A stretch of 49,179 nucleotides of DNA, from contig JBHIAE010000022.1 in the NCBI GenBank assembly GCA_046758445.1, forward strand, positions 1-49,179, given 5' to 3'. How positions within the stretch are numbered: position 1 is the stretch's first letter; each line of letters begins with the position of its first letter. The notes under the pieces are model-generated. The model saw only the letters and a program-made list of their open reading frames with translations. It did no database searches and was not told the DNA's origin. Positions 3-35,272 of this stretch are shown here, piece by piece. This stretch comes from Candidatus Thorarchaeota archaeon. GTDB lineage: Archaea; Asgardarchaeota; Thorarchaeia; Thorarchaeales; Thorarchaeaceae. The position numbers were made by a program, and so were the translations under genes.

Positions 3-3000
3 GCTGAGGTTCAGAGTTTTGGAGACCAGTTTTCAGTATCTAATGCCTCTCAGGTACAATGGAACAGCTACTATTTCGTTGCTGTTCCAAATGGCTACGA
101 AGACTACTTCTTCTTCAATACCACGAAGCATAGCGCAAGGGTCATAGACATCGTGTCCGAGCCTCGCTATCCAAGTACCGATTTCACGTTCTGGTCGACA
201 AGCAGTGAGAGTTTGAACGTTTCAGTGTATAGTGGTGTGACGGGAACCTATCAGAACGGCTTCTGGCGAATTCAAGGACACTCGGCCAACATTGTCCAGG
301 AACTTCAGATGTGGACCGGAACGTCTTGGTCTCCCTCTTACATCTACCGAGCTAATGATAATGTACGATTTAGAGCACAGCTTGATACTTCCTTCAACGG
401 CGCCACAGTAACCTTTGTAGTCCGTGATCCAACGAGCGCCATATGGGACACACTGACAGCTCAAGTAGTGGCCGGCTACGCAGAAACATCTGACGTGAAC
501 TTGGATGCCTTCACTGCGACCGTAGGTGAATGGACAGTTCAGGCCTATGCGAATGATTCGATTTCTGGTGGCCCCGTTCAGAATGTGGGCCTATACTCAC
601 GAACATTCGCTGTTGAACACAGCACCGACATGTATGTTATCTATCCTAGGGAGTCTGTAGCTAGTTGGACTCGGAACCTCACATACGGTCAAGACATGCT
701 TCTCCAACTCCGAGTAAACGACTCTGACAACGGTGACTTACTTCCGGGTGGAGATGCAACATTCAATTGGACCACAGGTACTGAACCGCTCAACGACATG
801 GGGACTGGAGAATACAGCACTGTCCTCAATACCGCAGACCTAGGTGTTCCTGGTCGATATGCGATTGCCATCTACTGGAATCGACAGAACTATGATCCTA
901 TCTCGAAGGTCTTTGTAATCAATGTTGTTGAAGAAACGACCCTTCAGTCGCCCAGTGCTCCAGGGGTCACCGTCCCCCACGGTTGGAATGCAACTCTAGA
1001 GCTATTCTTTGCTGACTCTTCAGGGTCAGGAATCCAAGATGCGATATTGACATGCAACTGGACTGATTCTCCCTACTACATAACCCCTGAAGTCGGCGAA
1101 CCAGGGAACTACACACTGACCATAACCACCTACAATTCCGTTCTCGATACATTTGCAGTGCTAGTAAAAGCTCAGAAAGACTTCTACGTGACCTCTCAGA
1201 TTACGCTCTTTGTTGAAGTTAGACAATTGTTCACTTCTGTTTCGGTCTCACACAGCATCTTCAGTCTGCCAATTGGATATCAGGAGTCTATCACTCTGAC
1301 TTATTGGGACACTGACCATGATTTGCCGATCTTGGGCGCGGAGAGCTCTATCTGGACCAACTGGTCAGACTATCACCAGTTTGGCGATCAGAACTACACG
1401 GTTGCGATGGTTTCGCCTGGAGTCTATGAGATAGTATTCTTCTCTATAGAAACAGACACAATAGGCACAAACGCAGTACGATTTGAGGTTACTCGCTTTG
1501 GATATCAGAATCACACTTTCGAAGTCACCGTGGACGTTTCAACCCATCTAACTTCATTCAGACTTGACAACCCTGTGGAGCCGACACCGTTCACGGTCGA
1601 CATCGCTATCCAGGTCACCTACTTTGATGAATCTACGTCGACAGGAATCGTCGGACCAGACGTTCTGATTTACGCAACAACACCAGGCATCAGTCCGTTT
1701 CTCTACACTGTCACGAACGGTTCAGCTCAAGGGTCGTATGTCATAACGATTCCTGCCAACCAATGGGGCGACATTGGATGGAAGGACTTGACGCTCTATG
1801 CAAACTGGACAGGACCGCGCAGCAAGTTTGACAATCTTACTTTGGATGTCAGCGTTAGGATTTCCGGTTCGCCTGCAGACCTCTTCATTGGACAGAGTCC
1901 CGTTTCCACTCCTTACGGGGAGAACATCAATTTCACGGTCGTCTACTGGGACGTGGGCAACAGTACCGGAATAGTGAACGGTACTGGACCTTACGCATTC
2001 AACGTTACGATACGCGTAGATGTACTAACACCGGGCCAAACACTCACTCAGGCACTGATGATCATAACTGAGGTTGACTACATCAACAGACCCGGGGAAT
2101 ATCGTATCGTGTTCAACACCTCTCATCTAAGTGGGCTAATTGGATGCGAGTTGAAGATTTGGTTCAATTGGACCAGGGGTGCCATGCCTCTCTATGAGAA
2201 TAGGACTCTACTATTGACGGTCTATTCAACGTATCGTCAGACAGTTGTGGATACTACAAGTCTCCCTGTGTCTCCATTTGATGAGAAAGTGAACCTCACC
2301 ATTGCTTACAAAGATGTCCTCACTGGTGCCAACATCCAAGACAGCGGTAGTCTGTCGATAACAACGCCTGGCTATGCGTTCAATGTAATATACGATGGCG
2401 ATGCCACAGCGCTCTTCTTCATCGAGGTAGATACTCTTCTGTTCACTTCTCCAGGGACATATAGCTTTCAGGTTGTGGTTGAGTGGTCTGGGGGCCCCTT
2501 CTATCAGAATCGTACGGTCGACATTCTCATCACTGTTCGAGAGAGATACACCTCATTAACCCATGGTTCCTATGGACAAGTGCAGTATGGCAACAATCTG
2601 ACACTGGTGTTTACCTACACCGACCTAGATGATTTCACAAGTGTAGGCATGAATGGCGGAACGCTGACCGTACCAGGACTGGTTGGGTTCTATGATATCA
2701 CGGACAACGGCGACGGCACATATACATTAGAGCTAGGGACAGATGCATTCCCATCAGTAGGAACTTTCGTCGTCAATGTCTCAATTGTTTACGGAGGAAC
2801 CCGTCACTGTGCGGATGCCACAGATTTCTTCCATCTCACTGTTGTGGAGCGAAGGACCCAACTCACGAGTGATCCTCCAGACCCAGCACCCTTCCTGACC
2901 CAGGCGAATATCACAGTTCACTACATTGACGATAACACGGCCTCAGGAATTGCGGGGGCAGACGTCTACGCGACATGTGCCACTGCCACTGAGCCCCTAT

Positions 3001-6000: not shown

Positions 6001-6575
6001 TCAGAGTTTGGTCAGTTCCAAAGCTACTGAGGACCTTGAGACGAATGGTCAGTATGCTGCGCAAGGGTCAGATTCCTGCGCCCGCAGACGTGCGCGATCG
6101 GAGGGCGGTCATACTTGAGAATATGAACGAGGATTTGGCACCTGTTGGACTTTCGAAGGAGTACGAAGACGTAGCTCCTTCCACTGTCGAAGTAGAAGCA
6201 TTAGATGTTGAAAGACTACTCGAGGAGCTACGTGTGGTCATTGGACTGACAGAGGAAGACGTGACAGTTCTTCGTCACGATTTGGATCGAATGCGGCCTA
6301 GCGAGAGAGCAGGCTTCATTGGAGAGGTTCTACGTCAGGAGCGAGCTAGGAGGGCTCGGGAGCTCGCAGAGGCGGAACTGGTGGCGGAAGAACCTGAAGC
6401 GGTCGTTGAAGCCGAGAGAAGACTCACCGAGGAAGAGCTTGAACATCTCAGAGAAGAGCTGATCAAGATGGGCATAGAACCGTCTGAGGCCGACCTGATG
6501 GTAGAGCAGGCAAGGTCCCTGACCAAGGCGGAGATAGACGCTCTGCTTGATCAGATAGGAGGTTTGAAGGAATGA
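3..6575 (+). CDS. Giant single-pass surface protein, A-type paralog (A1); 5'-partial
   Basis: Frame is open from position 3 (AEVQSFGDQFSVSNASQVQWNSYYFVAVPNGYEDYFFFN..., aligning to ~residue 400 of the paralogs), so the GTG at 153 is not the true start. 17 ~100-aa Ig-like repeats (D-x-G-N/D-G-x-Y motifs), many N-x-S/T sequons, TM helix at ~5944-6010, acidic helical cytoplasmic tail ending IGGLKE. Confidence 0.9.
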   Translation, partial: AEVQSFGDQFSVSNASQVQWNSYYFVAVPNGYEDYFFFNTTKHSARVIDIVSEPRYPSTDFTFWSTSSESLNVSVYSGVTGTYQNGFWRIQGHSANIVQELQMWTGTSWSPSYIYRANDNVRFRAQLDTSFNGATVTFVVRDPTSAIWDTLTAQVVAGYAETSDVNLDAFTATVGEWTVQAYANDSISGGPVQNVGLYSRTFAVEHSTDMYVIYPRESVASWTRNLTYGQDMLLQLRVNDSDNGDLLPGGDATFNWTTGTEPLNDMGTGEYSTVLNTADLGVPGRYAIAIYWNRQNYDPISKVFVINVVEETTLQSPSAPGVTVPHGWNATLELFFADSSGSGIQDAILTCNWTDSPYYITPEVGEPGNYTLTITTYNSVLDTFAVLVKAQKDFYVTSQITLFVEVRQLFTSVSVSHSIFSLPIGYQESITLTYWDTDHDLPILGAESSIWTNWSDYHQFGDQNYTVAMVSPGVYEIVFFSIETDTIGTNAVRFEVTRFGYQNHTFEVTVDVSTHLTSFRLDNPVEPTPFTVDIAIQVTYFDESTSTGIVGPDVLIYATTPGISPFLYTVTNGSAQGSYVITIPANQWGDIGWKDLTLYANWTGPRSKFDNLTLDVSVRISGSPADLFIGQSPVSTPYGENINFTVVYWDVGNSTGIVNGTGPYAFNVTIRVDVLTPGQTLTQALMIITEVDYINRPGEYRIVFNTSHLSGLIGCELKIWFNWTRGAMPLYENRTLLLTVYSTYRQTVVDTTSLPVSPFDEKVNLTIAYKDVLTGANIQDSGSLSITTPGYAFNVIYDGDATALFFIEVDTLLFTSPGTYSFQVVVEWSGGPFYQNRTVDILITVRERYTSLTHGSYGQVQYGNNLTLVFTYTDLDDFTSVGMNGGTLTVPGLVGFYDITDNGDGTYTLELGTDAFPSVGTFVVNVSIVYGGTRHCADATDFFHLTVVERRTQLTSDPPDPAPFLTQANITVHYIDDNTASGIAGADVYATCATATEPLLLNTNYWVDDLGGGSYQIRMSTVALGNFGSYTIEVTANWTGTPFYMERARSVDIEVSRRPVGFTVSRSPLNTPFLENVTFEITISDSRDGTPITVDKSTLILSHNGGIAILNSEYSISGSNGVYLISINSTVLTPVLVTGHPIEVKFFWGDMVPYYANATTATQVNIGPRFTQGRVLSTPAAFYSFNLSAVIEYSDYLTGRPIPSASVTFLCLNDSSFWSDIIPLGDGSYKILVDTNDLSGIGRYYFMANFTWTGPPYYDNVYGLEFSVVVNPVSTSLNFVLLPGVTYYLGDIVVGNITFTDILEGRGIDGAIITSDWNSTYAPSIALITPLGNGIYRMSINTSGLDAQVYPFTVSAFKLLHLNRSITADVFLAAIPVEIELVFTPTNPEWGEPVELSANVTDARNGNPVLPTIADPEPVNLTISGTTYVMVHQGGGIYNITIPTAGFVAGEYTLRVRCALLNHESRQKDFQMRIYKVASKISASLDPQVAVNGQTVTVEADYLILSNNSPIGIGVVTYSWIGGFGNLTWVPAQQKYVASFMVSNAAVGNHQILIQATSSVYKSVSTPITIEITEITTSLTAYQGITVLSAVSGDTVNVTVYMNNTALGLPVTGASVAYSIPGAAGDLTEIGGGYYSADVSTGTLQVGEWILGVSGAAPGFTPSSTQFTITILKIPTIVEILGEALIGEYYGRNVTFLLRFHDIHNDVGISGATATYVLELTGGTLQEMGNGTYSLTVNTTWVSAGMHSHDISVTFQKNLYDYAYGTVKLVSMPIPTEVIGAVEADVPVGDDYTHVFQFNDTLHNELLDNATAIAFWDFAPVSLTPLGGGAYRFGPTEANLSSRLDVRTTPYRIRIQFSKANYSVEEITFMLTIREIRTELRVEPLPSAIYVQEVFYVQVTFWDLDHDVAIPGAFNSTTGLDNLPEFAEDYGDGTYLFAFLPPAVSSYELVITLSMMDYQDASEVLFIQAEFTPEAQTLMRSFMWGGILLILIAGLASAYVRVWSVPKLLRTLRRMVSMLRKGQIPAPADVRDRRAVILENMNEDLAPVGLSKEYEDVAPSTVEVEALDVERLLEELRVVIGLTEEDVTVLRHDLDRMRPSERAGFIGEVLRQERARRARELAEAELVAEEPEAVVEAERRLTEEELEHLREELIKMGIEPSEADLMVEQARSLTKAEIDALLDQIGGLKE

Positions 6576-9500
6576 AGGTCAGGACAAGAATGCTCGTTGT
6601 AACTCTGATGGCACTCCTAATGCTAGTCAGCGCCAATGTGATGAGTAGTCCATGGACGTCAGAATTCGGCGGCATCAATGAGTTCGCATCTTTAGACCCA
6701 GATACTTCTCAGAACAAAGAAGATGCAAGAATGCCGCAATCTCCAATCTTCTCTTTGTCCGAGCAGGGTCTGACTGAATGGTCGGGTCAGTCCACCGAAC
6801 TGCCCACGATGGCCTATGGCAATCGAATAGATATGTTCGAGGACAATCAGAACAGATACTTCCCTTCAAACGGTTCAACAAGCGATACCTCAGTCTTTGT
6901 GCCGATGGGAGCGGGATGGGAAGGTCAAGAGCTATTCGTCGAGGTCTATGAGCTTACCGAGAATAGAACTTGGTTTGTGGACCCGGAGATGGAAGTAGGT
7001 GGTGCCCCTTGGTCGTTGGGAACCGTATCCGTCGGAGGAGGTGCAGCTCCGGAGGCAAACTGGCTCCCTGACGGTCACGGAAGCGGAAACGACTGCGTAG
7101 AATTCAGGATGACGAGTCCAGATGGAGACCCTTCAACCGGAGAGAGAGCCTATGCACGACAGAACGTCGCCGTAGACCGCGGGGATGTTGTCTGGGCTGG
7201 ATTCAGACTAGACTACTGGATTGACTCCGCCTGGGGCGCAGACGGATTCGTGGCAGTATACGTGTCAATTGAAACAAATGACTATACTCAGCGAGTTTGG
7301 CAGAGGTCCTTTGCAGATGTGACACAGGCTCAGACTTGGTTTGACAGTGGACTTGTTGTTCTGCAGGACTTGAGCATCTTCGACCTATCAGATGGTCTAG
7401 ATATAGAAGTGGGTCTGTATAGTCAGCAGTCTGTGAACTACTGGCCAGACCTTGATCCCGAGGCAAGAGTCGACAATGTTGAACTATACATAATGACTCT
7501 TACAGATCCCAGCGATGTGAACCTCCAGGTAAATGGGCTGGACGTGAATGATTTTGTGGTTGGAGCTTCAACGATTCCTGGGCTCGGCAATCGAACACAC
7601 GTTCCTGCCACGGAATGGACTTCAAATCCATTGCAAGTCAACTTCACATGGACACCCAGTCCTTCAACACCAGATCCTGATAGAGAGATCAGAGTTGACT
7701 TTAGCGTAAGAACGACTCTCTACGCCAGAGGCGCCGGGGCAACTGTTACGACACAAGATCCGGCAGCCTTCGGGGAATCATTCACCGCATCAAATGCATC
7801 TGAAATAGAGTATCTCACATGGTTCCATGCAGATATCCCTGAAGGGTATGATGAGGAGTACTACTTCAACATCAGCCTTCCGGAGAATCGGGATGTTTAC
7901 TTCGTTGGATCTCCCCTTCTTACATCAGAGAATATCACCGACTGGGACGAGGGACATGGTCCAGGATGGTATGCAAACATCTCTGCATTCGAGCATCTGG
8001 ATAGATGGGGATACTGGCTGGTAAGGAGCCATGGGTCAAACATGATCACAAATATCCTCATGGTGAATTCCACGACAGGTCGGACATCTGAGTTTCTTGG
8101 TTTAAGAGCACACGATACAACCAGATTCGTCGTAGAAGTGGGTGCTCAGTTTGCTGGCATTGAAGTGAATCTAACGGTGTATGACCCCTCAGGCACCGAA
8201 TGGTATTCAGAAGCAGCTATCGTGAATGGGACCGGATACGCGGAAACAAGAGAATTGACATTTGGAGTGAATGCTACCGCTGGTCAGTGGCTAGTGCAGG
8301 CCTTGTGCAATAACAGCATGGCTGGCTCAGCATGGAACAAGACGGGCTTCTTCAGTAGGTCCTTTGAAGTGACGCATGCATCCTTCTCGGAATTGCTCAA
8401 TCCAGCAGATGCAGTCGTTACTTGGACCACCAATGTGACTCGGCCCGACCTCTTTCTTGTGAGGATTCGCATAAACGACAGTGACATACCTTCGATCGCA
8501 GTTTCTGGAGGCCAGATGAGCTACAATTGGACGACTGGTACAGAGTACTTCAGTGACAGTGGAACCGGGCAGTACACAGTGACTCTTGACTCGGGCGACC
8601 TCGCACAGAAGGGTGAATACACTATCAATATTGATTGGGTACACCCATACTTTGACGCGATTTCAGACGTTCTTACAGTCTATCTGAATCTCGATGCGGA
8701 GATAGTCCTCGAGGTTCCTGACTCTCCGGGCCTATCGATACCAAGCGGCTACAACGAGTCATTCAGAGTTAGGTTTGAGGACGACATTGGGAATCCTATT
8801 GACTATGGAATAGTCGACTGCAATTGGTCGAGCTACTACAGTGTTAAACCCGTTACTGGCTCACCAGGAAGCTACATCTTCTGGCTAAACACAACCTTCG
8901 TCGGTCTGGGAGAATACGTGATTGCGGTAACTGGAGAAGCCAGCTTCATTCTCCCACAGACATACCTGGTCTACGTTGAAGTGAGAGAACTATACACTCG
9001 TATTTGGTATCTTCAGAACGTACTTGAAATCCCGCTTGGTGAGGCAAGTGACTTTACTGTTGACTGGATCGATGCTGACCACGAATTGCCACTTATAGGT
9101 TTGAACAACTCCATTGAAGTCAACTGGACTGGTTCATACTCTGTTGATGAAATCTCACCAGGTACCTACAACATTACTATGTTCACGGAAGACGCCGACA
9201 CCTTGGGAACATATCCTGTGAAGGTGACCTTGTCAGGTTCATTGATGCAGAACCAGTCCTTCGTGATACAAGTGATTGTGAGACCGCATAATACCTTCTT
9301 CACGCTTGATGAACCGGTAGGCGACACTCCATACGGGGAGGAAGTCGTCATACTCGTATTCCACCTCGATACAGACTTCTCCACTGGGACCTCGAATGCA
9401 ACTGGGGACTTGAGTATCTCAGTTACAACTCCTGGGATTGTTGGGCTTCAGTACGTAGTTTCTGACTCTACTTTGGGTGTAGGCCATTTCAACATAACAA

Positions 9501-14305: not shown

Positions 14306-14316
14306 GACCGAGTAGG

Positions 14317-14340
14317 TGCCTTGAGCAGCTCATCAAGGTA
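14317..14340 (+). terminator. Hairpin immediately downstream of B1 (possible terminator/stability element)
   Basis: tgccttga (14317-14324) pairs with tcaaggta (14333-14340), 8 bp with one G-U, 11 nt after the stop codon; no U-tract. Confidence 0.3.
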
Positions 14341-14522
14341 GAAGCTCCAAAGATCACAGAAGTCCTCCGTATCACGTTTGCACTTCGCGACAACGTACTT
14401 AATAGCTCAGGAAGGAATTGGTTGATTGATGGGGGTCTTGCCTTGTTCCAGCATTCCGGGCTGATGCTTTTCGAAAAAACGAGAGAGTTTGCAATCTACG
14501 GAATGAGGTTCGACAGAGCTGC

Positions 14523-14623
14523 TTATTAAAAGAGTAAGTCCCTTAGGCACTTGGCGGGTTCTCTGGCTTGGATTCGAATCTCAATCCAATCTTGGACAGT
14601 GAAAGCCCTACGCTCAAGGAGGT
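14523..14623 (+). promoter_or_regulatory. Putative TATA box, leader and Shine-Dalgarno for the A2-B2 operon
   Basis: TTATTAAA at 14523-14530; AGGAGGT at 14617-14623, 6 nt before GTG 14630; leader hairpin ttggatt/aatccaa (14568-14589). Confidence 0.5.
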
Positions 14624-14629
14624 CGCCTC

Positions 14630-20600: not shown

Positions 20601-22408
20601 TGTCAGGGGTCTTCGGTGACCTGGTGAATGTGACAGTCTACTTGAACGACACAGACGTCGGCCGGCCTGTCACAGGTGCAACTCTGACCTATGGAGTGGG
20701 TACTATTGTTGGAAGCCTTACAGACCATGGAAACGGGTACTACAGCGTTGGCGTTCCAACAGGCTTGCTTGAGATTGGTGTGTCGACTCTTACCGTGGCC
20801 AGTGTCAAAGATGGCTTCACTCCATCCTCACTGCAGTTCACGCTCACCGTGGAGAAGGTACCAACTAATGTCGTGATACTGTCAAATGCTGTCCTAGAGA
20901 AGTACTATGGAGAGAATGCAACCTTCCTACTGATGTACAGAGATTCTCACAATAGTGTTGGCATTCCTGGCGCGACCTCAGGATTCATTCTTGAGAGTGT
21001 CACGGGCTCCCTTGTCGATCTGGGGAATGGCAACTATGAACTGATAGTCAACACAACTGCGGTTGTGGCCGGTGTGGTCGCCCATGACATCTCGGTAAGT
21101 TTCGTGAAGGATGGATACACATTCACATCAGGACTTGTGAAACTTGTCGTGCGTCCTATACCGACAGAAGTCCTTGGACCGAGATTGTTCTCAGTTCCTG
21201 TCGGCGATGACTATAGTCAATCGTTCCAGTTCTATGATTCACTAAATGGCGAGCTGCTTGATGGAGCCACGGCTACAGCTATTTGGGAATTCGGCTCCGA
21301 TTCGCTCACCCCGACCGGAAACGGGACATACGTCTTTGGGCCGGCTGTGACAGGAATCCCAAGACTAGAGATTCGTGAAGAACCTTACATCCTGAAGATC
21401 CAGATGACAAAGGGCAACTACAGTTTTGGCAACGTGGAAATCAGAATGACCATTAGGGAAATTGCCACCGAGATCGTTTTCGACACCTTCCCGAGTCTTG
21501 TCGTGACAGGAGTAGACTTCGAAATCAGGCTCAGGTTCATGGATGTGGACCACCAAGTCCCCATCTTTGATGCAATCAACGTAACAGATCATTCTCGACT
21601 CACACGCTTGGTGGATCAGGAATATGTGCTCGAAGATGGCACATACGTGTTTGTCTTCAGATCGCTAATACCTGGATACACCCCTCTCGTGATCAGTTTC
21701 TCGAAGATAGACTACCAAACTGCAACCTACACCTTCGATGTATACTCGCGACTTTCTCCAGAGGCACAGGCGATGGCGAACACCGTCATGGGAGCTGGGT
21801 TGCTGCTCATCTTCATCGTCGGTGCTGCTGGCCTTTACGTGAGAGTCCTATCAGTCCCCAAGCTGCTTCGGATCCTGAGGAGGATGGTATCCAATCTTGC
21901 AAGGGGAGTGATCCCCGATCCTGCTGCAGTCAGGAGCAGAAGAGAGATGATTCTTGAGGACATGAACACCGATCTCAAGTCGGTTGAACTGTCTAAGACT
22001 CTGGATGACATTGCAATGGACACTCTTGAAGTTGGTGCACTAGATGTGCAGAATCTTGTTGATGAGCTAGCCCAGGTCATAGGCCTCACTGAGGCGGACA
22101 TCGCAGTGATGATGTCTGATCTGGAGAGGATGCGGCCCAGCGAGCGTGCAGGATTCATAACTGAGGTACTGAAACAAGAGCGTGCGCGAAGAGCCAAGGA
22201 GCTGGCAGAAGCAGAGATTGCCGAAGAAGAGGTCGCTGTACCTGAAGAGGCCAAGCTCTCAGAAGAGGAGCTTGCCGACCTGAAGGAGCGTCTGCTGAAA
22301 CTTGGCATCGAAGAGTCCGAAGCAGACATCATGGTCGAACAGGCCAGAAGCCTCACTCGTGCTGAGATTCGGGCACTGCTAGAAGAGATAGGAGGCTTGG
22401 AAGAATGA
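14630..22408 (+). CDS. Giant single-pass surface protein, A-type paralog (A2), 2592 aa
   Basis: Signal peptide MRSKKALMLLLILMPLVSG; collinear with A1 (e.g. AAIPVEIEL, MVHQGGGIYN, VGNHQIL, DTNDLSGIGRY); 17 Ig-like repeats; TM at ~21785-21840; tail ending IGGLEE. Confidence 0.92.
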   Translation: MRSKKALMLLLILMPLVSGAFLSHSTTHDLSPQVRLADVGDGEVIELGPDETLHKFTLSDMPTVREGTGAPLNGSEYGSRTDMFPSESIMYNSTSRSTNHVNLTVPIAKHWEAYEVFANVTSLTENRTWLLNPSFDNSGNWTYGTHNEMPGVNAITSEWDSNGHGAGDGSTRHQIFGDPSRTYDLGDKGYATQNISLSLGEIVWVGVSLDYYARFPPLPGTLTGYFELFVSLGDPDKDPDDDGERDPDYFWSIQFNEIQQDSVWYSTGIVEVDTSITDFQNAEIWAGLRSVDDVRYGRNRDPEGRLDNIEIYIKSKATPGQLNLKTNDKDVEGTTPGQGQLRFPVGINEMKGTAYADFSWTPIPATPDPNRDITVDLDVTLTAYAWSYNDFTKNNTASLTNGSLYSVWNATDVDWETNFLAIVPEGYENEYFFSLSIPDNRDVYTVAEPDFRHVNLTSGWTLGDPLDGAVNVSVYDITTTSQNGFWLVKGTSPNMITNLQVWNDDTSQWLGTEKFGANNNTRFRATLSSSYAGNTVYFTVYDPDGAVWIEQQAVVDSSGYATTSMVNLDAYNASVGAWEVQAFVDDSVSGGGSINNLGYYRRGFSIGHGTSMSVKYPVGSDVSWNVTVVHGTWVLLQLRVNDTDNGDFLPGGTMTYSWAAGSGAVSDLGTGEYSVTLDTGLLASNGEYDVTLQWNKGYYDPLVRTFKIVAILNTDLFSSDAPGIDVPSGYIAQLSFSFRDQYSQGIADAELTTNWSYPYTVTQVMGQPGDYTVELNTTGAPLETFLVSFTASKDYYETRTVILSIQVRELHTSAIPSTSLLSLPVGYIKSLRITYTDSDSGSPISGAAWAIRCNWSDIHSFGDQNYTVVETGTPGEYEVTIYSEDTDVLGTYSVVFNVEMPGAQNHTFIATLVLKTHLTSFSLVNPIDPTPYTGNVRILVYYYDADADAGIENGTSVGYFVDIEVRSSTLPLVNFAWANGTVHGEYILLLSAAQWGSIGDKDLTILCNWTGPTVKFYNRTISTSARITGAQTQLFMGDSPVMTPYGENVSFSVVYWDVGGGVGVVNSTGPYAGNVHLYVDVLTSGQLLTQSLMMITEVNAIINPGEYRIEFNTTYLSGLISCDLRIWLNWTKAALPYYKNQTLLLTVYATYRQTTVGWTPMPVTPYDEFVNLTLTYQDALSTENIRDSPSLLISTPGYAFSLFYEGDATAVFKIQVSTSAFGSPGTHTFQVDIIWSGSPFYQNKTGMVIPITVRERHTQFTHGSYAPVQYSNNLTIIFTYLDLDDFPYTGVSGGTITLDSSLGGFYSVWDNSDGTYTLKLNTSAYLSLGTFQVNATMTYGGVRFCADATDTFYLTVARRITQLTGDLPQPAPFLTLANLTVHYIDDSTSRGIMNADVSLFSATASQPLVQGVTFWVVNLADGVYEIGVDTGALDGFGSHIIDATLSWSGPPFYQQRTISITVEVTRRSVSFGVSKSPVTTPFKELVVFEISITDSLTGAPVLLNKSVLLVTHGSGTEVPPSQYTLAGYGEFYTISINSTVLTSVLVADHPIQVKFYWGDWSPFYANATTSTLVTIGPRFTQATVLSTPPASYSFNLTALVKYSDYLSGSPITNAAVSILCVNDTTFARWIIDNGDGTYSIIVDTNDLSGIGRYFFEANLTWLGSPFYRDVIGVEFSVVVTPVATVLNFALPSGVVYYLGDIVYGNITYFDVTTGLGIDGAEVATNWTIRHGTESTITPMGNGIYQLVINTSTLDAKIYTFSVNASKFQHFNRSITTDILLAAIPVEIELQFAPTDPTWGDVLELSANVTDARTGQPILGAAVNLTIASIAYDMVHQGGGIYNATVPTGSFDSGEYSILITSVLLNHETRQKTFQIRIQKVAANIIASIDPLVSVNGQSITIEVDYFILSNSTPISVGVVTYSWIGGSGTLSWQPAQLNYTGQFIVDNAPVGNHQILVQASSSNFKTVSVVLTIEVRETNTGMRAYQDNTVLSGVFGDLVNVTVYLNDTDVGRPVTGATLTYGVGTIVGSLTDHGNGYYSVGVPTGLLEIGVSTLTVASVKDGFTPSSLQFTLTVEKVPTNVVILSNAVLEKYYGENATFLLMYRDSHNSVGIPGATSGFILESVTGSLVDLGNGNYELIVNTTAVVAGVVAHDISVSFVKDGYTFTSGLVKLVVRPIPTEVLGPRLFSVPVGDDYSQSFQFYDSLNGELLDGATATAIWEFGSDSLTPTGNGTYVFGPAVTGIPRLEIREEPYILKIQMTKGNYSFGNVEIRMTIREIATEIVFDTFPSLVVTGVDFEIRLRFMDVDHQVPIFDAINVTDHSRLTRLVDQEYVLEDGTYVFVFRSLIPGYTPLVISFSKIDYQTATYTFDVYSRLSPEAQAMANTVMGAGLLLIFIVGAAGLYVRVLSVPKLLRILRRMVSNLARGVIPDPAAVRSRREMILEDMNTDLKSVELSKTLDDIAMDTLEVGALDVQNLVDELAQVIGLTEADIAVMMSDLERMRPSERAGFITEVLKQERARRAKELAEAEIAEEEVAVPEEAKLSEEELADLKERLLKLGIEESEADIMVEQARSLTRAEIRALLEEIGGLEE

Positions 22409-25400
22409 AACAACCATGGAAGTCAATTATGCCATTGTTTGTCATGGCTATCTTCATTCTTCAACTTGCGTCATTCGATGGTGCGGCTATTCCAAGCACA
22501 TCTCTGCAGAATGAACTTGTCGATCTGGGCGGCGGCAGGTCTATCGAGGTTAGTCCCGAAGAAACACTTCATAGATTTGCACTGACAGACCAAGGGCTGA
22601 TTGAGTGGAATGGGATATCTGATGGTCTGGTAGGTCAAGAACATGGCAGCCGAGATGATTCCTTTGGACCCATTAGTCTGGACTATACTCCTCTAGTAGG
22701 TACTGAGAATACGTCTATGTCAGTTCCGTTTGGAGCAGACTGGGAGGCCTACGAGCTTGAGGCTCGTGTTTCCGATATCACAGAGAATCGCACTTGGATC
22801 ACAAACGGGGAATTTGATAGCAGCGCCAACTGGACAGTTGGAACTGTAGGTGCGGGCAGCGGGAATAGTACCGTTTCTACCTATTGGGAGAGTGATGGGC
22901 ATGATGGTGATCCATGCATGTACTTTGAGATCGACTCGACAACCAGTTTCGGCGGCTTCTGGAGATATGACCAAGATGACAGGGGATATGCCAGACAGAC
23001 AATGGAGTTGCCAAGGGGTGAGGTTGTCTGGGCCGGAATCAGTTTTGACTATCAGTCAGGTACTTACAGCGGGAGCTGGACTTGGGCCCTATCCATGGCG
23101 CTCTATGTTGTCATTGAAAGCAGCAACCCATCCGATTGGGACTGGAGACTTGTTCAGACAGACATGAGTGTAGAGGGTGCATGGAACAGCACTGGACTCA
23201 TGACCATTCCAGTTTCAAACTTCAATACACCAACTGATCAGAATGTCACAGTAGAGGTCGGCTTTTGGAGCATGACCAGCGAGGGATTCAGCCCAGATCC
23301 TAATCCATATGCAAGAGTGGACAATTTCGAAATCTACATCAAAACGAGAGCAAAGCCCAGTGACATAAATCTTCAGATGAATGGTCTAGATGTTGTGGAT
23401 GATATCACGTGGGGCATTGGTACCGTGACTCAAGAGCCTGTGGTGCCATGGCAGACAAGTCCAGTTTCACTTGACTTCACTTGGTGGCCGACTCCGCTTT
23501 CCCCAGCACCATCTGTGCCCATAGCCATAGAACTGTCCATCGACACCAGACTGTTCGCTAGAAGGATAGACATCGTAACTGCGTATGAGCTAAGCCCGAC
23601 ATCCTATGGCCAGAGATTCACTGTGACCAACGGATCTACGGTTGAGTATACCACGTATTTCTTTGCAAATATACCCTCAGGATATCTCGACCACTACTTC
23701 TTCAACATGTCACTACCATCAGATAGGGACGTCTATCATGTTGGACCTCCATTGGACCTTCTGAATAATCTGACAACCGACTGGATAGGAGGCAACCCCG
23801 GAGACGGATATCTGAATGTGTCTGTATATCAAGTTGACCCAGAACTTGGCAAGCAGGGCGCATGGTGGATAAAGAGCGCAGCCCCCAACATGATTTCCGA
23901 CATTGACCTCTATGACTATGCGAATTCGCAATGGGCCCAGTCAATCGACTTCCGTGCCGGCAACTCGTCACGAATAAGAGTCTACACCGACCCATCGTTT
24001 GAAGGAGCAACAGTTAATGTGACCCTGTACGACCCAACAGGAAGCTCCTGGTTGAACCTTACCGCAACAGTTGACTCACTTGGACAAGCCACAACTCAAC
24101 GCTTTACACTTGGGTCAAATGCAACAGCGGGGACCTGGGTTGCCCAGGCTATTGTGAGTGATTCCGACGTAGGAGGCATCTGGTACTCTACGGGATTCTT
24201 CAAGAGAGCGTTCACAATCACGCATGAATCCGAACTGATTCTCGATCATCCTCTGGACGCAGTAGGCTCCTGGTTGACCAATGTTACTCATGGTGACTTG
24301 ATGCTCATCATTCTCAGGGCAAATGACACTGACAGCGATGTGTTAGTACCAGGAGGTGTGCTGACTCTGGATTGGGCGCTTGGAACGGATACATTTGATG
24401 ACAACGGCAACGGAGAGTATACAAAGGCAATTGATACATCCCTTCTGCCAACAAAAGGACAATACGTCATGAACCTGACTTGGACAAAGGACAGCTTCGA
24501 TACTTCAAACGCAACACTGCTTGTCAACGTAAACTATCCATCAATATTGAGTTCCCCTGACTACCCCGGAATCACAGGACCAATAGGATATGATCAAACT
24601 ATCATGGCGACCTACTCAAACACAAATGGTACAGGAATCGATGGTGCGGCAATGGTCTGCAATTGGTCCAACCCATATACAGTTACACCGATGGGTGGCG
24701 GCGATTATGAGTTCCTGCTTGACACGTCAGGTATTGGTCCTGGCCAATATCCAGTGATGTTGAACGCCTCCGCACCATTTGTTAATCCACAGACATTAGT
24801 CCTGTACGTTCAAGTCCGGGAGGTCTACAACTCAATATCATACTCTGCTAACGAGCTATCAATCCCGGTTGGAGAAACAGAATCATTCCTCCTTACGTGG
24901 ACAAACACTGACACCGATGAGAGGATTCTCGATGGAGAGAGCTACATATCCTGCAATTGGACTTCGTTCCACCGCCTGGGTGAGAGCAACTACACTGTTT
25001 CTCATCTGGGTAATGGGGTCTATAACATAACTATCTACACAGAGTCCGATGATCCTCTGACAACAGGGAACGAGTTCTACACGGCCACTTTCAATGTAAT
25101 GCGGAAGGACTTCCGGAATCATACTTTTGACGTCAAGGTCAGAGTTCGAAGTCACAACACCTTGTTTGTGCTCGACGAACCTGTTGAGAACACAGAGTAC
25201 GGTACAGACATCATTGTACTGGTCTTCTATCAGGATGCCGACATGTTGGAGGGCATAGTGAATGACACTGGAGAAGTCCGGTTCGCTATAACATCGCCAG
25301 ACATTGGCAGTGTTAAGTTCTCGGTTCAGAACTCGTTGCTTGGAGCCGGTCACTATAACACTAGTATACCGTCACAACAGTGGGGTAGCATAGGCTGGAA

Positions 25401-28400
25401 GAACTTCACCATCCAAGTCACTTGGCAGGGTGTTGTGACCAAATACTATAGTCGTAATATCCAGACTCGTGTGAGAATCACAGGCACAGAAACGAATCTG
25501 TTCCTTGAGGTTGCTCCTACAGCGACCTACTACCTTGATTTGGTGACCTTCACGACGACATATGCAAACATCAATGGTACCAAGATATCTAACACAACCG
25601 GCCATGTCCTTCTGGCAATTACGCCACTGACTTCAGGACATCCTGTGACACAGGCGTACTTCATAGTAGCAGAGTCTGGAACCGACCCCGGTTCATACAA
25701 ATTCCAACTCGACACTTCCGGCTTTCAGTCGATTGGTGTCTTCGACTTTCAACTTGACTTCATGTGGACAAGCGGGCAATCGCCCTTCTATGAGAACCAG
25801 TCGATGACTGTTTCTCTTGTGGTCCTATCGAGGCCAACCTATGTCGACTATGTTCCCGTACCTGCAACACCCTTCTATGAAACTGCTGATTTCACATTCA
25901 GCTATGTGGATCTGCTATCGACCGCAAAGATTCCTTCATCTCCACAATTGGAGATCAGCTTGAATGAACCAGGAGTCTCCTATTCTGTTTCCTATGATTC
26001 TGGTTCGTTCACAATGGCCATTGATACAGACTCACTAGCAGGAATCGGAACGTTCGTGTTGAATTTGAATCTGACGTGGACAGGTGAGCCTTTCTACGAG
26101 TCGATCTCAAGCTTCCCGTTCATGGTCGAAGTCATTCAAAGGACAACTCAGCTAACACATGATCCGTTTGAGTTTCCACAATGGGGGAACAATGCCACCA
26201 TTGTGTTCAATTACACCGATTTGGTTGCACATAGCACCATTGGAATGTCAGGAACTCTCGTCCTCAACATCACTGTTGGCTACTACGCAGTACAGTATCT
26301 TGGGAGTGGACAATACCTGGTTGTGCTAAACACTTCAGCGCCCTCCTTTGGGTCAGACGGAACATTCATTCTCAATGCCACCATCCAACACACTGATCCC
26401 TATTTCGCCGATGCATCCAGATTCTTTGGATTCACAATACTAAAACGCTCTACCCAGTTTGGATATGAGAATCCAGACCCTACGCCCTACCTGGACAACG
26501 TCACCTCTGTTGTTTCATACATTGATGACAGCACGGGAAGAGGAATATCTGACGCATCCGTTAGTGTGACAAACAATGTTTCGGCCCTCATACTCGACAC
26601 AAACTACTGGGTCACATACTTAGGAAACGGCCAATACCGTATCGAGGTCGATAGTGTTGCGCTTTCTGCCCCTGGTGTCTACGTGTTGAACGTCACCTCA
26701 ACCTATTCAGGTGCTCCGTTCTACCTACCACAAAGCAGAAACGTCAATGCGAGAATCACCGAGCGCACGACTCAGATCATCATCACCCAGACCCCGGGTG
26801 ATGTGCCCTATCTGGAGAACATTACAATCGGATTCCGATTTGAGGACTTTCTCACTGGGAATCCTGTTGGTATCGACAAAGGTGACATCACACTTACACA
26901 TGATGTGTCAATGACACCAATTACCTCAGGCCAGTACAACCTCTATGATTTCGGTACGTATTATGAGATTGTGTTCAACTCGACAATCCTCAGCCCATCT
27001 TCGTTGGTGAACGGACACCAGATACATCTTGACATTGGCACAGGACCAGTTCCTCCATACTATGGATTCCGGAGCATCACTACGTTCGCATCAACAACCG
27101 AAAGACAGACTCAGATATTCTTCCCCCTTGTCGAGGATACCCCGTACTTCGAGAATCTAACAATGGAACTGGATTTCGTTGATTTCTTGACAGGAAACGG
27201 AATCGAGGGTGCGACACTTACGTTGAGTACTTTCAACTGGAGCGTTCCCGAATACCAGGTAATCGAGCTAGGTGCAGGGAAGTACCGAGTGCTGGTGATT
27301 AGCACCGTCTTTGGTAGCACAGGGACTGTCTACTTCAACGTGACTCTTAGCAGACCGGGAATCCCGTTCTTCGCAGAGAGGACAACGGCGAACGTACCGG
27401 CGACCATACGGCTAGTTCAAACAGCAATGGTTTCTGAAACTCCAGCACCTGGTTCCACAGGAGTTGGGGTTCCGATCAACGTCACGCTGACTCTGAAGGA
27501 CTTTGACCATGATGTCCCGCTCGCGGGGGCAACAATAACGACTGACTGGTTCACACGATATGGTACATCATTCTCAATCATGGAAGTTGGTAATGGAGTC
27601 TACATGATCACACTGAACATGACGGGCCTTATTGCTCAGGACTACCCGTTCACAGTCCAGGCTGACAAGACGTTCTATGCGCCTGCAAACATAACAGTAG
27701 TTGTGACACCAGGTGCGGCATCATTCGAGATTCTGATACACAAGAGTACATACTATGCACTATGGGGTGAGCTGATTGATGTCCGTGTAGACGTGAGAGA
27801 GGACTACTATCATTCTCTCGTACCCGGGGCAAATGTGACGATGCTCTGGAATAATACAGTCTACAACTTCAGTGATTTGGACAACGGTACGTACTCTCTT
27901 CTGCTCTATACCTCAGACGCCAACTTCGGAGTCCATGAACCTCAAATTACTGTTTCAAGGCGGTATTACTCCGATAGACAGACATCATTTACAATGGTAG
28001 TCTCCAAAGCCCCTGCACAGATTGTGAGCGAGCTTGCAGTCGTACAGGTAGTCGTCGACACCACAACGAACTTCACAGTCTACCTCAACGACACGGTTTC
28101 GAATGCTCCTGTCATCGGTGCTTCGGTCTTCATGGAGCTGAACAACACTGTATATCTACTCTTCTACAATGGCACTCCAGGTTACTACGAGGGAACCATT
28201 GATGCAACTGGCTTTGACTTCGGACCTTACGAGATAACTCTGAGTGCCGCATCTGTCAATCATGACTTCCTTGATACAGTGCTTGAGATTAGTGTGGTGC
28301 CAATACCAACCGATATTGGGCTTGTTGGTGGCCTGACTTCATTGTCAGTCATCCTTGGAGACAGTCTACTTGTGCGTGCAAACTACAATGACACATACTA

Positions 28401-30117
28401 CGGTGGTTTCATTGCGGGCGCCACCATCAACTATACAGTTGGTAGTTTCACAGAAACACTCACTGAGGAAGCGAACGGGACCTACTGGGCCTTAATAGAC
28501 GTAAGTAGTCTAGGGGCACAAGCTATCCAGCTCAGGATCGTCGGGACAAAGGCCGGCTATTCAACTGCCAGCAGGACCGTTGTGCTCAACATTCTTGCCA
28601 TCCCAACAGAAGTGACTGTGAACACTCCCCTCAGGGACGGTTATCACGGAGACACTGTTCAGTTCACTTTCCACTACAACGATACCCACAACAACCTGCC
28701 ACTTCCAAGTGCAACTGTGGACGTTCTGTGGGAAGGAGCCAATGCAAATGTGACCGACCTTGGCAACGGCTACTACTTCGTCGAGACTGCGCTCACACCG
28801 ATTTCTCCGATACTCTACGATGTGGATGTGAGATTCAGCCTTCATGACCATGCGACCTTCACCTTGACAGTCAGTATTGTGATCATTCCAACGCCAGCAC
28901 AGATCATCGCTCCTGCTTCTGTTTCGGTCCCCGTGAACGATACGTCTGAGGTGTACATCAACGTCAAGAATCTCCTGACGAATGAAACTGTCACTGGATT
29001 GCCAGGTTCTGCATACTGGGACGTCTACGGCGAACAGGCTCTTGGGATACGCGCGAATGGAAGCTACATCCTGACGATACCTGACATCTATCCAATGCAG
29101 ACCTACAGGATTGATCTTGCCTTCTCAACCTCAATCTATGATCTGAGTCCAGTCCAGATAGAGGTCACAATTCGTGCTATTCGTACAGAACTCAGGATCG
29201 ACAACACAACCATCGAAACAGCGCCGGGAGCGGTCCACACTGTCAATGTTGTCTATTATGATCTTGATCATGATGAATTCGTCAGTGGTGCCGAGATCAA
29301 CGTCATGGAGTCTGATGATTTCGTGTATGAGGGGTACACACAGGAAGGGAATACCTACGTAATCACCATCAGGATTGTTGCAGAAAGAAGCTTCAATGTC
29401 ACAATCACATTCTCGAAGGAGAACTACGAATCAGAGATCTTGACTCTCGATGTGAAGTCAGACATCACACCCGGTCAGCAGCTTGCTGTGGCCTTGCAGT
29501 ACGCAGGCGGCTTCCTCATGGTTCTTTTCGCGATGCTGATTGTTGGCTATCTAAGGATTTGGAGCATACCTAAACTGGTTCGTCAAATGAATAGAATGAT
29601 TCGAGACCTCAGTCGTGGAAAGATCCCGAAGCCACCAACCGTGCCAGACAGACACTCAATGGTAGTTTCAATCATCGATGAAGAGTTTGTAGGGACAACT
29701 GTGAGGAAGGTCCCAGAGGAGATTGCGGTAGTGAGCATAGAGGCCATCGTTCCTGACGTGGAGGAGCTGCTTGCACACCTGGCTGCGATCACTGGTTTGG
29801 GCGACAAAGAGCTTGAGGCCTTCCGTCAAGATCTTGCCAGAATGAGAGCAAGTGAGAGACCAGGCTTCATTAGAGAGGTGATTGAGCAGGAGGAGGCTCG
29901 TCGAGCCGAAACACTAGCCGAAGATGAGGAAGCGAAGCGTCCCGAAGAGGCGAAGGAAATCCTCGAGCAGAAGCCTGAGGAGCTTGAAGAACTAAGAGTC
30001 AAGCTACGAAGAAAGGGAATGTCAGAGGACGAGGTCGACATCATAATCGAACAGGCCAAGGGACTCTCCAAAGCGGACCTCGAGGCCCTCCTAGACAGTC
30101 TTGGTATCAGGTTGTAG
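22405..30117 (+). CDS. Giant single-pass surface protein, B-type paralog (B2), 2570 aa
   Basis: Signal peptide; collinear with B1 (RPTYVDY, ITQTPG, LVPGANVT, YNDTYYGGFI); 17 Ig-like repeats; TM at ~29490-29550; same last 24 residues as B1 (IEQAKGLSKADLEALLDSLGIRL region); ATGA overlap with A2 and AGGAGG at 22390-22395. Confidence 0.92.
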   Translation: MKQPWKSIMPLFVMAIFILQLASFDGAAIPSTSLQNELVDLGGGRSIEVSPEETLHRFALTDQGLIEWNGISDGLVGQEHGSRDDSFGPISLDYTPLVGTENTSMSVPFGADWEAYELEARVSDITENRTWITNGEFDSSANWTVGTVGAGSGNSTVSTYWESDGHDGDPCMYFEIDSTTSFGGFWRYDQDDRGYARQTMELPRGEVVWAGISFDYQSGTYSGSWTWALSMALYVVIESSNPSDWDWRLVQTDMSVEGAWNSTGLMTIPVSNFNTPTDQNVTVEVGFWSMTSEGFSPDPNPYARVDNFEIYIKTRAKPSDINLQMNGLDVVDDITWGIGTVTQEPVVPWQTSPVSLDFTWWPTPLSPAPSVPIAIELSIDTRLFARRIDIVTAYELSPTSYGQRFTVTNGSTVEYTTYFFANIPSGYLDHYFFNMSLPSDRDVYHVGPPLDLLNNLTTDWIGGNPGDGYLNVSVYQVDPELGKQGAWWIKSAAPNMISDIDLYDYANSQWAQSIDFRAGNSSRIRVYTDPSFEGATVNVTLYDPTGSSWLNLTATVDSLGQATTQRFTLGSNATAGTWVAQAIVSDSDVGGIWYSTGFFKRAFTITHESELILDHPLDAVGSWLTNVTHGDLMLIILRANDTDSDVLVPGGVLTLDWALGTDTFDDNGNGEYTKAIDTSLLPTKGQYVMNLTWTKDSFDTSNATLLVNVNYPSILSSPDYPGITGPIGYDQTIMATYSNTNGTGIDGAAMVCNWSNPYTVTPMGGGDYEFLLDTSGIGPGQYPVMLNASAPFVNPQTLVLYVQVREVYNSISYSANELSIPVGETESFLLTWTNTDTDERILDGESYISCNWTSFHRLGESNYTVSHLGNGVYNITIYTESDDPLTTGNEFYTATFNVMRKDFRNHTFDVKVRVRSHNTLFVLDEPVENTEYGTDIIVLVFYQDADMLEGIVNDTGEVRFAITSPDIGSVKFSVQNSLLGAGHYNTSIPSQQWGSIGWKNFTIQVTWQGVVTKYYSRNIQTRVRITGTETNLFLEVAPTATYYLDLVTFTTTYANINGTKISNTTGHVLLAITPLTSGHPVTQAYFIVAESGTDPGSYKFQLDTSGFQSIGVFDFQLDFMWTSGQSPFYENQSMTVSLVVLSRPTYVDYVPVPATPFYETADFTFSYVDLLSTAKIPSSPQLEISLNEPGVSYSVSYDSGSFTMAIDTDSLAGIGTFVLNLNLTWTGEPFYESISSFPFMVEVIQRTTQLTHDPFEFPQWGNNATIVFNYTDLVAHSTIGMSGTLVLNITVGYYAVQYLGSGQYLVVLNTSAPSFGSDGTFILNATIQHTDPYFADASRFFGFTILKRSTQFGYENPDPTPYLDNVTSVVSYIDDSTGRGISDASVSVTNNVSALILDTNYWVTYLGNGQYRIEVDSVALSAPGVYVLNVTSTYSGAPFYLPQSRNVNARITERTTQIIITQTPGDVPYLENITIGFRFEDFLTGNPVGIDKGDITLTHDVSMTPITSGQYNLYDFGTYYEIVFNSTILSPSSLVNGHQIHLDIGTGPVPPYYGFRSITTFASTTERQTQIFFPLVEDTPYFENLTMELDFVDFLTGNGIEGATLTLSTFNWSVPEYQVIELGAGKYRVLVISTVFGSTGTVYFNVTLSRPGIPFFAERTTANVPATIRLVQTAMVSETPAPGSTGVGVPINVTLTLKDFDHDVPLAGATITTDWFTRYGTSFSIMEVGNGVYMITLNMTGLIAQDYPFTVQADKTFYAPANITVVVTPGAASFEILIHKSTYYALWGELIDVRVDVREDYYHSLVPGANVTMLWNNTVYNFSDLDNGTYSLLLYTSDANFGVHEPQITVSRRYYSDRQTSFTMVVSKAPAQIVSELAVVQVVVDTTTNFTVYLNDTVSNAPVIGASVFMELNNTVYLLFYNGTPGYYEGTIDATGFDFGPYEITLSAASVNHDFLDTVLEISVVPIPTDIGLVGGLTSLSVILGDSLLVRANYNDTYYGGFIAGATINYTVGSFTETLTEEANGTYWALIDVSSLGAQAIQLRIVGTKAGYSTASRTVVLNILAIPTEVTVNTPLRDGYHGDTVQFTFHYNDTHNNLPLPSATVDVLWEGANANVTDLGNGYYFVETALTPISPILYDVDVRFSLHDHATFTLTVSIVIIPTPAQIIAPASVSVPVNDTSEVYINVKNLLTNETVTGLPGSAYWDVYGEQALGIRANGSYILTIPDIYPMQTYRIDLAFSTSIYDLSPVQIEVTIRAIRTELRIDNTTIETAPGAVHTVNVVYYDLDHDEFVSGAEINVMESDDFVYEGYTQEGNTYVITIRIVAERSFNVTITFSKENYESEILTLDVKSDITPGQQLAVALQYAGGFLMVLFAMLIVGYLRIWSIPKLVRQMNRMIRDLSRGKIPKPPTVPDRHSMVVSIIDEEFVGTTVRKVPEEIAVVSIEAIVPDVEELLAHLAAITGLGDKELEAFRQDLARMRASERPGFIREVIEQEEARRAETLAEDEEAKRPEEAKEILEQKPEELEELRVKLRRKGMSEDEVDIIIEQAKGLSKADLEALLDSLGIRL

Positions 30118-31289: not shown

Positions 31290-31332
31290 GTATCAAAGGA
31301 TTCAATGAACTCTTCTTAACTGTTCTCACGGG

Positions 31333-32373: not shown

Positions 32374-33050
32374 GGTGGCCACCTTCTGAGTCTCTGCCAG
32401 AGGAATCCAGGGATGTGGACGTAGGGAAACGAGGAGTGTCCAGTAATCTGCGTTCTTCCTTTCCTCAGCTCCTCAAAGATGTCCTCATACGTTTCGATAT
32501 CTTGAAGCCATGTTCGCCCGTGTCCCACCTCTCTGCTAAAGTGACCGTCACTTCCTGCAGTTGTGGGCTTGCGAAGTCTTACTGCCAGCTTCTGGGCCCA
32601 TGTGTTGAATATTGGAAGGAGGCATCTCGAGTTTATTCCCTCTATGAGGTCCACATGTTTTCGGATGTATTCTGTGGGTAGCCCCTTCCTGATCGCGGTG
32701 TGTTTTCGTAGTGGGTCTCTGGGATGGGGGAGCACCACCAGACCGTTCTGGTCGTGAATGTCCTCTGCTATCTCCTCAAATGTTCGGTTCTCGATTGGCT
32801 CAGTGACAAAGAGTCCAATGATCTCGCCATGGTCAGACGATTTGTACTCGCACGCATTCAGCAGGAACATCCCGCCTTTTGAAATCGGCTTCAGTATTGA
32901 CGGTGCCCAGTGCTCTGTCAGCGCCACCCCTCTGAGCCCCTTCTTCTTCATCAGCTTGAACAATGACCTCGGATCATTGAATCCATCCTTCGAATGGGAT
33001 GTGTGAACATGCATGTCGAAGGATGAAACCCTAGAGGCCATTCTTCTCAC
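32370..33050 (-). CDS. PHP-domain metal-dependent phosphoesterase
   Basis: DMHVHT, ALTEH, VLPHP, IEGINSR, AGSDGH motifs of the PHP superfamily. Confidence 0.85.
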   Translation of the reverse strand: MRRMASRVSSFDMHVHTSHSKDGFNDPRSLFKLMKKKGLRGVALTEHWAPSILKPISKGGMFLLNACEYKSSDHGEIIGLFVTEPIENRTFEEIAEDIHDQNGLVVLPHPRDPLRKHTAIRKGLPTEYIRKHVDLIEGINSRCLLPIFNTWAQKLAVRLRKPTTAGSDGHFSREVGHGRTWLQDIETYEDIFEELRKGRTQITGHSSFPYVHIPGFLWQRLRRWPP

Positions 33051-34049: not shown

Positions 34050-34064
34050 TCCTAGTTCTCCATT

Positions 34065-35144: not shown

Positions 35145-35187
35145 TGGTCACTCCCTCTGAATCCATCTAAGGACCACTCTTAGGTTC

Positions 35188-35204: not shown

Positions 35205-35272
35205 TGTCCCCTATGATGACCTTAAGAACTTGCCTCAACTTGTACCTTTGTACTATCTCTCAGACCATACAG

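Follow-up and report, generated by a model that had tools for sequence, protein, structure and literature searches.

Introduction

Bacterial repeat adhesins (Bap/Esp/Rib/alpha-C type, SiiE, Lig proteins) are tandem immunoglobulin (Ig)-like surface rods that project a binding head, and they vary in repeat number owing to near-identical DNA repeats. Cadherin and titin are built from old, individually specialised repeats, and their orthologs keep a fixed number and order. Integrin alpha and beta are two type-I subunits with large ectodomains, single transmembrane (TM) helices and cytoplasmic tails, and their 1:1 association has been demonstrated. In Asgard archaea, adhesin-like membrane proteins with FN3/Ig repeats have been described for Nerearchaeum marumarumayae; these combine an N-terminal signal sequence, a long FN3/Ig-like array and a membrane anchor, and some carry a beta-propeller head (bioRxiv 10.1101/2025.07.22.663070). 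The present work concerns four giant genes, termed A1, B1, A2 and B2, in a 49,179-nucleotide stretch of DNA (the window) from a Candidatus Thorarchaeota archaeon (assembly GCA_046758445.1, contig JBHIAE010000022.1). These four open reading frames (ORFs), all on the + strand, make up the first 30 kb of the window and are arranged as two A-then-B pairs.

The stalk of each giant contains 17 Ig-like units. An earlier note on this DNA had counted these units by eye and had read the constant count across the diverged A and B classes as a sign of selection on equal stalk length. The constancy is upheld here, but such selection is not required, as shared descent suffices. The reading favored below, with a probability of roughly 0.55, is that the equal count was inherited from a 17-unit ancestor and that length matching is not needed to explain the data.

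Seventeen Units in Each Giant Protein

The units were delimited with a repeat hidden Markov model (HMM) that was seeded solely from rough A2 windows and then taken through three iterations. The seed-only model (iteration 0) already finds 17 units per protein, the weakest unit of B1 and B2 having an independent E-value (i-E) of 0.002. With the iterated model, 17 units of ~100 amino acids (aa) abut without gaps in each giant, at i-E values of 1e-14 to 1e-30. The same HMM gave no match below 1e-3 in 20 shuffled and four reversed control sequences. Together, the four stalks span nucleotides (nt) 630-29448, compared to 620-29470 in the earlier note, whose count of 17 for each of A1, B1, A2 and B2 is confirmed. 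The motifs listed there (T-x-L, Y-x-D, I-x-GA, D-x-G-N-G-x-Y and G-x-Y) are all present in the HMM consensus, and translations combined with HMM coordinates place QWGxIGWK in unit 4 and YxDDxT in unit 8.

Structure prediction gives the same boundaries in A2. AlphaFold2 models were obtained for residues 480-1670 and 1569-2592 from alignments of 79-80 rows, with mean predicted local distance difference test (pLDDT) values of 87 and 85, respectively. They are strings of 17 all-beta beads, each a separate sandwich, in which hardly any linker separates the last strand of one bead from the first strand of the following one. The bead boundaries reproduce the HMM units (Table 1), and Foldseek matches the models to the Ig arrays of GP210, titin, contactin and DSCAM. 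The structural count comes from A2, and the B counts come from the HMM and from indel-free alignment to A: the A/B alignments lack any unit-sized indel, with 2623 columns for 2585 and 2562 aligned residues (BLASTP). No Pfam family reaches its gathering threshold in any giant; the best scores are 24.2 for Invasin_D3 (PF09134; cut-off 33) and 21.1 for MG2 (PF01835; cut-off 32.8), and InlK_D3 and Ig_J likewise fall below their cut-offs.

One additional beta-sandwich, termed domain 0, lies at the junction of head and stalk, its strands being found at residues 17-127 of the A2 model. An extra sandwich precedes unit 1 in all four giants, and in A1 and B1 its position shows weak matches to Pfam MG2. 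Domain 0 is not homologous to the units, none of whose profiles it matches with an hhalign probability above 11%. There are therefore 17 homologous repeats, and 18 sandwiches in a row when domain 0 is counted in.

It could be argued that the number 17 is an artefact of counting by eye or of a self-trained HMM, and that the true domain numbers of the partners differ. The iterated HMM was indeed trained on the same four proteins, the structural model covers A2 only, and the sandwich before unit 1 brings a purely structural count to 18. However, a seed drawn from A2 alone recovers 17 units in B1 and B2 and the shuffled controls give none, the AlphaFold2 boundaries coincide with the HMM units, the A/B alignments are free of unit-sized indels, and the extra sandwich is common to all four proteins. 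A counting artefact is hardly credible on this evidence.

Register and Divergence of the Units

The four giants align end to end. Identity is 54% for A1/A2, 48% for B1/B2 and 31-32% for A/B, with a single collinear high-scoring segment pair for each comparison (BLASTP), and the four are collinear whole-gene paralogs. The register is also kept at the level of single units. For A1/A2 and for B1/B2, the best match of every unit is the unit of the same index (17/17). Between A and B, the same-index unit is the best match in 12-14 of 17 cases by local alignment score, in 10-12 of 17 by identity over HMM columns, and in 15/17 rows and 16/17 columns of a profile-profile comparison, in which units 12 and 13 are ambiguous. 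These two units (window 19943-20536 in A2) are the most diverged between A and B, at 16-21% identity, which is no better than unrelated units; within each class they are well conserved (55-64%). The earlier observation that repeat n is most similar to repeat n across classes therefore holds, with units 12-13 ambiguous. Median unit pitch differs between A and B by at most 6 aa at every index.

Units within one protein are much less alike. Over HMM columns, their mean identity is 18.5% and their maximum 34%, compared to 30% for same-index units of A and B and 50-55% for units within a class. The giant genes contain no intragenic direct DNA repeats, and long repeats only link paralogous genes. 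Near-identical repeats are lacking and the recombination substrate for slippage is therefore absent. The premise that units are freely gained and lost, from which the earlier note had argued, is thus inapplicable to these proteins. This pattern clearly places the diversification of the repeats before the duplication of the whole gene, and 17 = 17 then follows from descent: A and B have equal counts as paralogs from one 17-unit ancestor.

Conservation of the Pair and of the Count

Two database searches yielded 214 relatives of the giants, and the source names of the close homologs are almost uniformly Candidatus Thorarchaeota. All 146 full-length proteins of the A/B clade have 17 units by HMM, so that a count differing between strains or species, as in variable adhesins, was not seen. 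Their stalks span 1754±7 aa in A and 1739±6 aa in B, B being on average 15 aa shorter. In a survey of 41 genomes of the order, covering 17 genera and two families, the queries used found the A/B family in 34 genomes, including 23 of the 24 high-quality ones.

The gene pair is conserved as well. Twenty loci were fetched from other genomes, with the second family of the order represented, and in each of them B comes immediately after A in the same orientation; the 15 with both stalks complete are all 17/17. The comparison of partner counts in other genomes that the earlier note had proposed hence shows no variation. The stop codon of A and the start codon of B overlap as ATGA in both pairs of the window and in 11/20 other loci, and either this overlap or a gap of at most 5 nt is found in 16/20. 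The A/B family is a major, order-wide surface component with paired subunits and a strictly conserved rod length. Literature searches found no description of this A-B pair.

The heads are less constant. About 25 A orthologs carry an N-terminal 6-bladed beta-propeller head, recognized by NHL-type Pfam hits, and exceed the others in length by about 290 aa; the B proteins paired with them are of ordinary length, and both stalks still have 17 units. Examples include P0010-P0013, P0032, P0036 and P0040, and the loci concerned include L009, L014 and L016-L020.

Equal counts could in principle also be maintained by concerted evolution, in which gene conversion between adjacent paralogs would keep the units collinear and equal in number. 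Two observations lend themselves to this explanation. The tail-coding 3′ ends of B1 and B2 (window 13921-14220 and 29733-30032) are 79% identical over 300 nt, much more than the remainder of the genes, which is suggestive of gene conversion between these two copies. The second family is represented by one sampled genome (L023; G002:C33:5800-22100), in which A and B are mutual best hits at 44% identity and form one group in the C-terminal tree. Each still remains closer to its own class, and a slower rate of divergence or partial gene conversion could account for this. However, the conversion signals lie between B1 and B2 or within tails, not between A and B stalks, which are only 31-32% identical and share no DNA tracts in the window. 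Concerted evolution of the stalks is accordingly a very improbable source of the equal count.

Relatives with Other Unit Counts

Other subfamilies are as constant in unit number as the 17-unit one. Eight 21-unit proteins (44-82% identity) keep their count, and so do five 23-unit proteins (34-82%); further examples were met among the relatives. In each of these subfamilies a sampled member is without an operon partner: P0202 (23 units) has no giant neighbor, and the only giant neighbor of P0209 (21 units) is divergently transcribed. In the type III clade, 23 units is also the common count, and it occurs there in a stand-alone protein.

Where the count has grown, similar units are present. The expanded relatives contain recently duplicated units, 45-94% identical, in the outer stalk (roughly units 3-16), compared to the static 17-, 21-, 22- and 23-unit proteins, in which units are never above 34% identity to each other. 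Recent internal duplications of this kind are seen in P0237, P0206, P0111, P0108 and P0217. In P0237, which has 38 units, units 6, 11 and 16 are 89-94% identical, a spacing that suggests duplication of five-unit blocks.

Further giants that bear the same tail lie near Rad51 / GCV_H genes, one to three per locus and with 21-31 units, varying by genome (syntenic loci upstream of these genes: L030, L041, L042, L043 and L044). Single giants at this locus have 21, 27 or 30 units. Co-directional neighbors have 22 then 21, 31 then 30, 31 then 21, or 31, 23 and 21 units, and a divergent 31 / 21 pair also occurs. The co-directional giants here are uncoupled, with gaps of roughly 140-600 nt.

A second type of translationally coupled pair has 23/23 units in the two genomes examined (L036/L037, G013:C13:15330-42300; L038/L039, G023:C6:35500-65636). 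The first protein of the pair has 5180 or 6208 aa and the second about 3800-3850 aa from its inferred start, the stop-to-stop frames of the downstream genes being 3979 and 4011 aa. Their heads measure 1130-3531 aa and differ between partners by 1300-2400 aa. In G013, the stop and start codons overlap as TAGTG.

Inheritance or Selection on Equal Length

Several findings weigh against inheritance alone as the explanation of the equal count. Relatives with 26, 27, 30, 31, 32, 36 and 38 units exist, so the count is not frozen in the superfamily. The 32- and 36-unit proteins share a C-terminal clade with A and B in a quick tree made from the last four units plus the tail; one of them, P0104, is without a giant neighbor. 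The absence of any change in two lineages, 146 sequences and at 31% identity may be more than a missing substrate would produce. When the head of A was exchanged for a 6-bladed propeller, the stalk was left at 17 units. Both types of coupled pair are exactly matched (17/17 and 23/23), whereas uncoupled neighbors often are not (22/21, 31/30, 31/21, 31/23/21).

These points can be accommodated by a model in which stalk lengths are matched. A and B would then form a 1:1 heterodimer, side by side or two-ended, or a spacer of fixed reach, and selection would remove one-sided changes. This model draws on the operon with its stop/start overlap, which is conserved across the order, on the unchanged count in 146 proteins and on the close agreement in pitch between A and B at every index. 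It is also consistent with the exact match of the second coupled type in spite of its large and unequal heads, with the mismatch of loosely linked neighbors (31 then 21; 31, 23, 21), and with the ability of relatives to expand to 26-38 units.

Much of this evidence is equally expected from descent, which explains equality in both coupled types. The contrast between coupled and uncoupled giants rests on n=2 coupled types, in both of which equality can be inherited, and 23 is the common count in the type III clade, also in a protein without a partner. At the level of residues, partners do not co-vary in their stalk spans (r=0.07, n=17), and the B stalks are on average shorter than the A stalks. 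Units 12-13 have moreover diverged to about 17% A/B identity. Contact between A and B is predicted from gene pairing. A predicted A2-B2 complex (A2 2170-2592 and B2 2155-2570, comprising units 16-17, TM helix and tail) scored 0.27 against a mark of 0.32 and gives no verdict. Matching of lengths by selection is therefore held as a tentative alternative, and inheritance from a 17-unit ancestor is preferred.

Proposed Origin and Function

On the inheritance reading, the giants of this Thorarchaeota-like Asgard archaeon are membrane glycoproteins of type I and paralogs of one another, each comprising a signal peptide, a head of ~490 aa, an MG2-like sandwich, 17 tightly joined and diverged Ig-like units, a TM helix and a tail of ~190 aa. 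Ig-like domains are usually ~4 nm long, and 17 units should therefore make a rod of roughly 60-80 nm. As a first step, the repeats would have diversified. The 17-unit gene would then have been duplicated to give an A-then-B operon, at a time when the order had not yet divided into its two families, and this genome would later have gained a second A-B pair. The count may have stayed fixed since each unit has its own position-specific sequence and thus nothing similar enough to recombine with. Ordinary purifying selection on each architecture would also contribute, as in the constant 21- and 23-unit relatives.

The stop/start overlap shows A and B to be co-translated, as far as gene arrangement can tell, and they would presumably be produced 1:1 and are likely to act together. 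We infer that they work jointly in adhesion or recognition at the cell surface, the head being the variable part and the cytoplasmic module the conserved one. A more specific scheme is rather unlikely as matters stand: A and B would form an obligate coupled heterodimer of two parallel ~70 nm rods, the length of 17 units would be selected as a spacer or ruler, and the order-specific tail would relay a signal inward. If this scheme is true, the ruler could, for example, set the distance between the Thorarchaeota cell and a partner cell or substrate. It would also mean that a two-subunit adhesion receptor exists in archaeal relatives of eukaryotes, with the coupled 23/23 pair as a second instance of the rule.

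Both outcomes are of interest. If the lengths are matched by selection, the pair is a rare prokaryotic two-chain molecular spacer. If they are not, it is a clean example of diverged repeats that are fixed in number while similar repeats expand. In either case a defined system is now available, with exact domain boundaries, 146 homologs and a conserved operon junction, and the coupled 23/23 pair and the uncoupled arrays with changing counts provide natural comparison groups.

Topology, Head and Tail

The giants have a type-I topology, as seen from the signal peptide, the confinement of sequons to the ectodomain, the TM helix and the helical tail. N-termini are hydrophobic. Each ectodomain contains 54-66 NxS/T sequons (2.5-2.8 per 100 aa), and there are none in any TM-plus-tail region; A2, for example, has 59 ectodomain sequons and a sequon-free tail. 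The giants have very few cysteines (3-6 per protein). Numerous columns of the tail are invariant in alignments A4-A6. Feature searches of the ESM Atlas were uninformative on the tail; on the head they yielded only a hint, below threshold, of a GH101/galactose-binding-like domain (score 0.75).

The TM-plus-tail module was found, with the query used, in 27/27 other genomes of the order compared to 0/123 genomes from 25 other families of the phylum. A single genome can have it on as many as 7 proteins, and this genome has six matches, with sites that include window 21737-22405, G000:C48:180-722 and G000:C83:4978-5544. Its carriers are giants of 2.2-6.2 thousand aa, plus a frame of only 313 aa on contig C48.

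Genes and Genomic Setting

The window is the start of contig C22 in a 3.25-Mb assembly of 113 contigs, and A1 is cut at its 5′ end by the contig end. The missing N-terminus of A1 (~390 aa, including the signal peptide) is found on contig C74 (G000:C74:1-1300, locus L005). The reverse complement of the C74 start overlaps the window start by exactly 55 nt, and the A1 frame continues across it. To judge from this overlap, A1 is split by an assembly break and not truncated in the genome. At full length A1 has about 2577 aa, so that all four giants measure 2570-2592 aa.

Downstream of the giants, at 30198-46678, lie genes for a class I Trp/Tyr-type tRNA synthetase, a UbiA prenyltransferase, a PHP-domain protein, a DUF362 protein, a calcineurin-like (Metallophos) phosphoesterase, a SLOG protein and an FtsX-type permease. 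None of these neighboring genes has an evident link to the giants.

Table 1. Coordinates of the giant genes and of their features in the window
Feature	Position (nt)	Strand	Residues (aa)	Basis and remarks
A1 gene	3..6575	+	2190 here	ORF list and translation; 5′ end cut by contig end
A1 stalk, 17 Ig-like units	630..5897	+	210-1965	HMM tiling, i-E 1e-16 to 1e-27
B1 gene	6572..14305	+	2577	ORF list and translation; ATG overlaps A1 stop as ATGA at 6572-6575
B1 stalk, 17 Ig-like units	8396..13636	+	609-2355	HMM tiling
A2 gene	14630..22408	+	2592	ORF list and translation
A2 domain 0, MG2-like beta-sandwich at head-stalk junction	16100..16453	+	~491-608	
A2 stalk, 17 Ig-like units	16466..21736	+	613-2369	HMM tiling; structural boundaries aa 609-2374
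A2 unit boundaries			608, 713, 810, 917, 1030, 1152, 1256, 1359, 1467, 1578, 1682, 1781, 1880, 1978, 2077, 2177, 2278, 2374	AlphaFold2 secondary structure
A2 transmembrane helix	21758..21835	+	2377-2402	AlphaFold2 helix H809-834 of model
A2 cytoplasmic helical tail	21836..22405	+	~190 in length	AlphaFold2 helices; conserved between A and B
B2 gene	22405..30117	+	2570	ORF list and translation; ATG overlaps A2 stop as ATGA at 22405-22408
B2 stalk, 17 Ig-like units	24247..29448	+	615-2348	HMM tiling

Comparison with Known Systems

Like the bacterial repeat adhesins, the giants are Ig-like rods with a head, and Foldseek also matches the neck of GhpA. Unlike in those adhesins, the units are only ~18.5% identical, DNA repeats are lacking and the number of units never varies. 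In their position-specific repeats and constant count, the giants resemble cadherin and titin more closely, and titin I65-I70 is among the Foldseek matches. However, there is no sequence relationship to these proteins, and the fold subtype is different.

The best Foldseek match in the PDB to the A2 stalk model (window 16067-19639) is GP210/NUP210 (7r5k_10, E 8e-30; also 9hcj_10). The matches include the human and Dictyostelium proteins, at E ~1e-29 to 1e-30, TM-scores of 0.11-0.15 and about 10% identity. NUP210/GP210 is likewise a type-I protein with a long Ig-like array, one C-terminal TM helix and a short tail, but its domains number about 15 and its gene does not form part of a paralog pair. 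Any long Ig array gives scores of this kind, and the likeness may be one of architecture only. A profile search of PDB sequences gave only a marginal match to an S-layer protein (4uid_A, E 0.003).

Integrins offer a functional analogy for the pairing hypothesis, since A and B are co-encoded type-I subunits that would be made together (A-then-B in 20/20 loci; ATGA in the window and in 11/20). Unlike the integrin subunits, A and B are paralogs of each other, and their association is deduced from operon structure.

Among the closest described proteins are the Asgard adhesins, and the giants carry the signal peptide, FN3/Ig-like repeats and membrane-spanning segment that mark this adhesin-like class. 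The Nerearchaeum adhesins share with them the signal, the Ig-like array and the anchor, and their propeller heads have a counterpart on the about 25 A orthologs noted above. The Nerearchaeum paper describes single proteins, one of them with 54 domains, and reports no conserved gene pair (10.1101/2025.07.22.663070), whereas the giants form a translationally coupled A-then-B pair, fixed at 17+17 units and provided with an order-restricted tail. The general class has therefore already been described; the novelty lies in a paired architecture fixed at 17+17 and in how this differs from relatives in which the unit count is labile.

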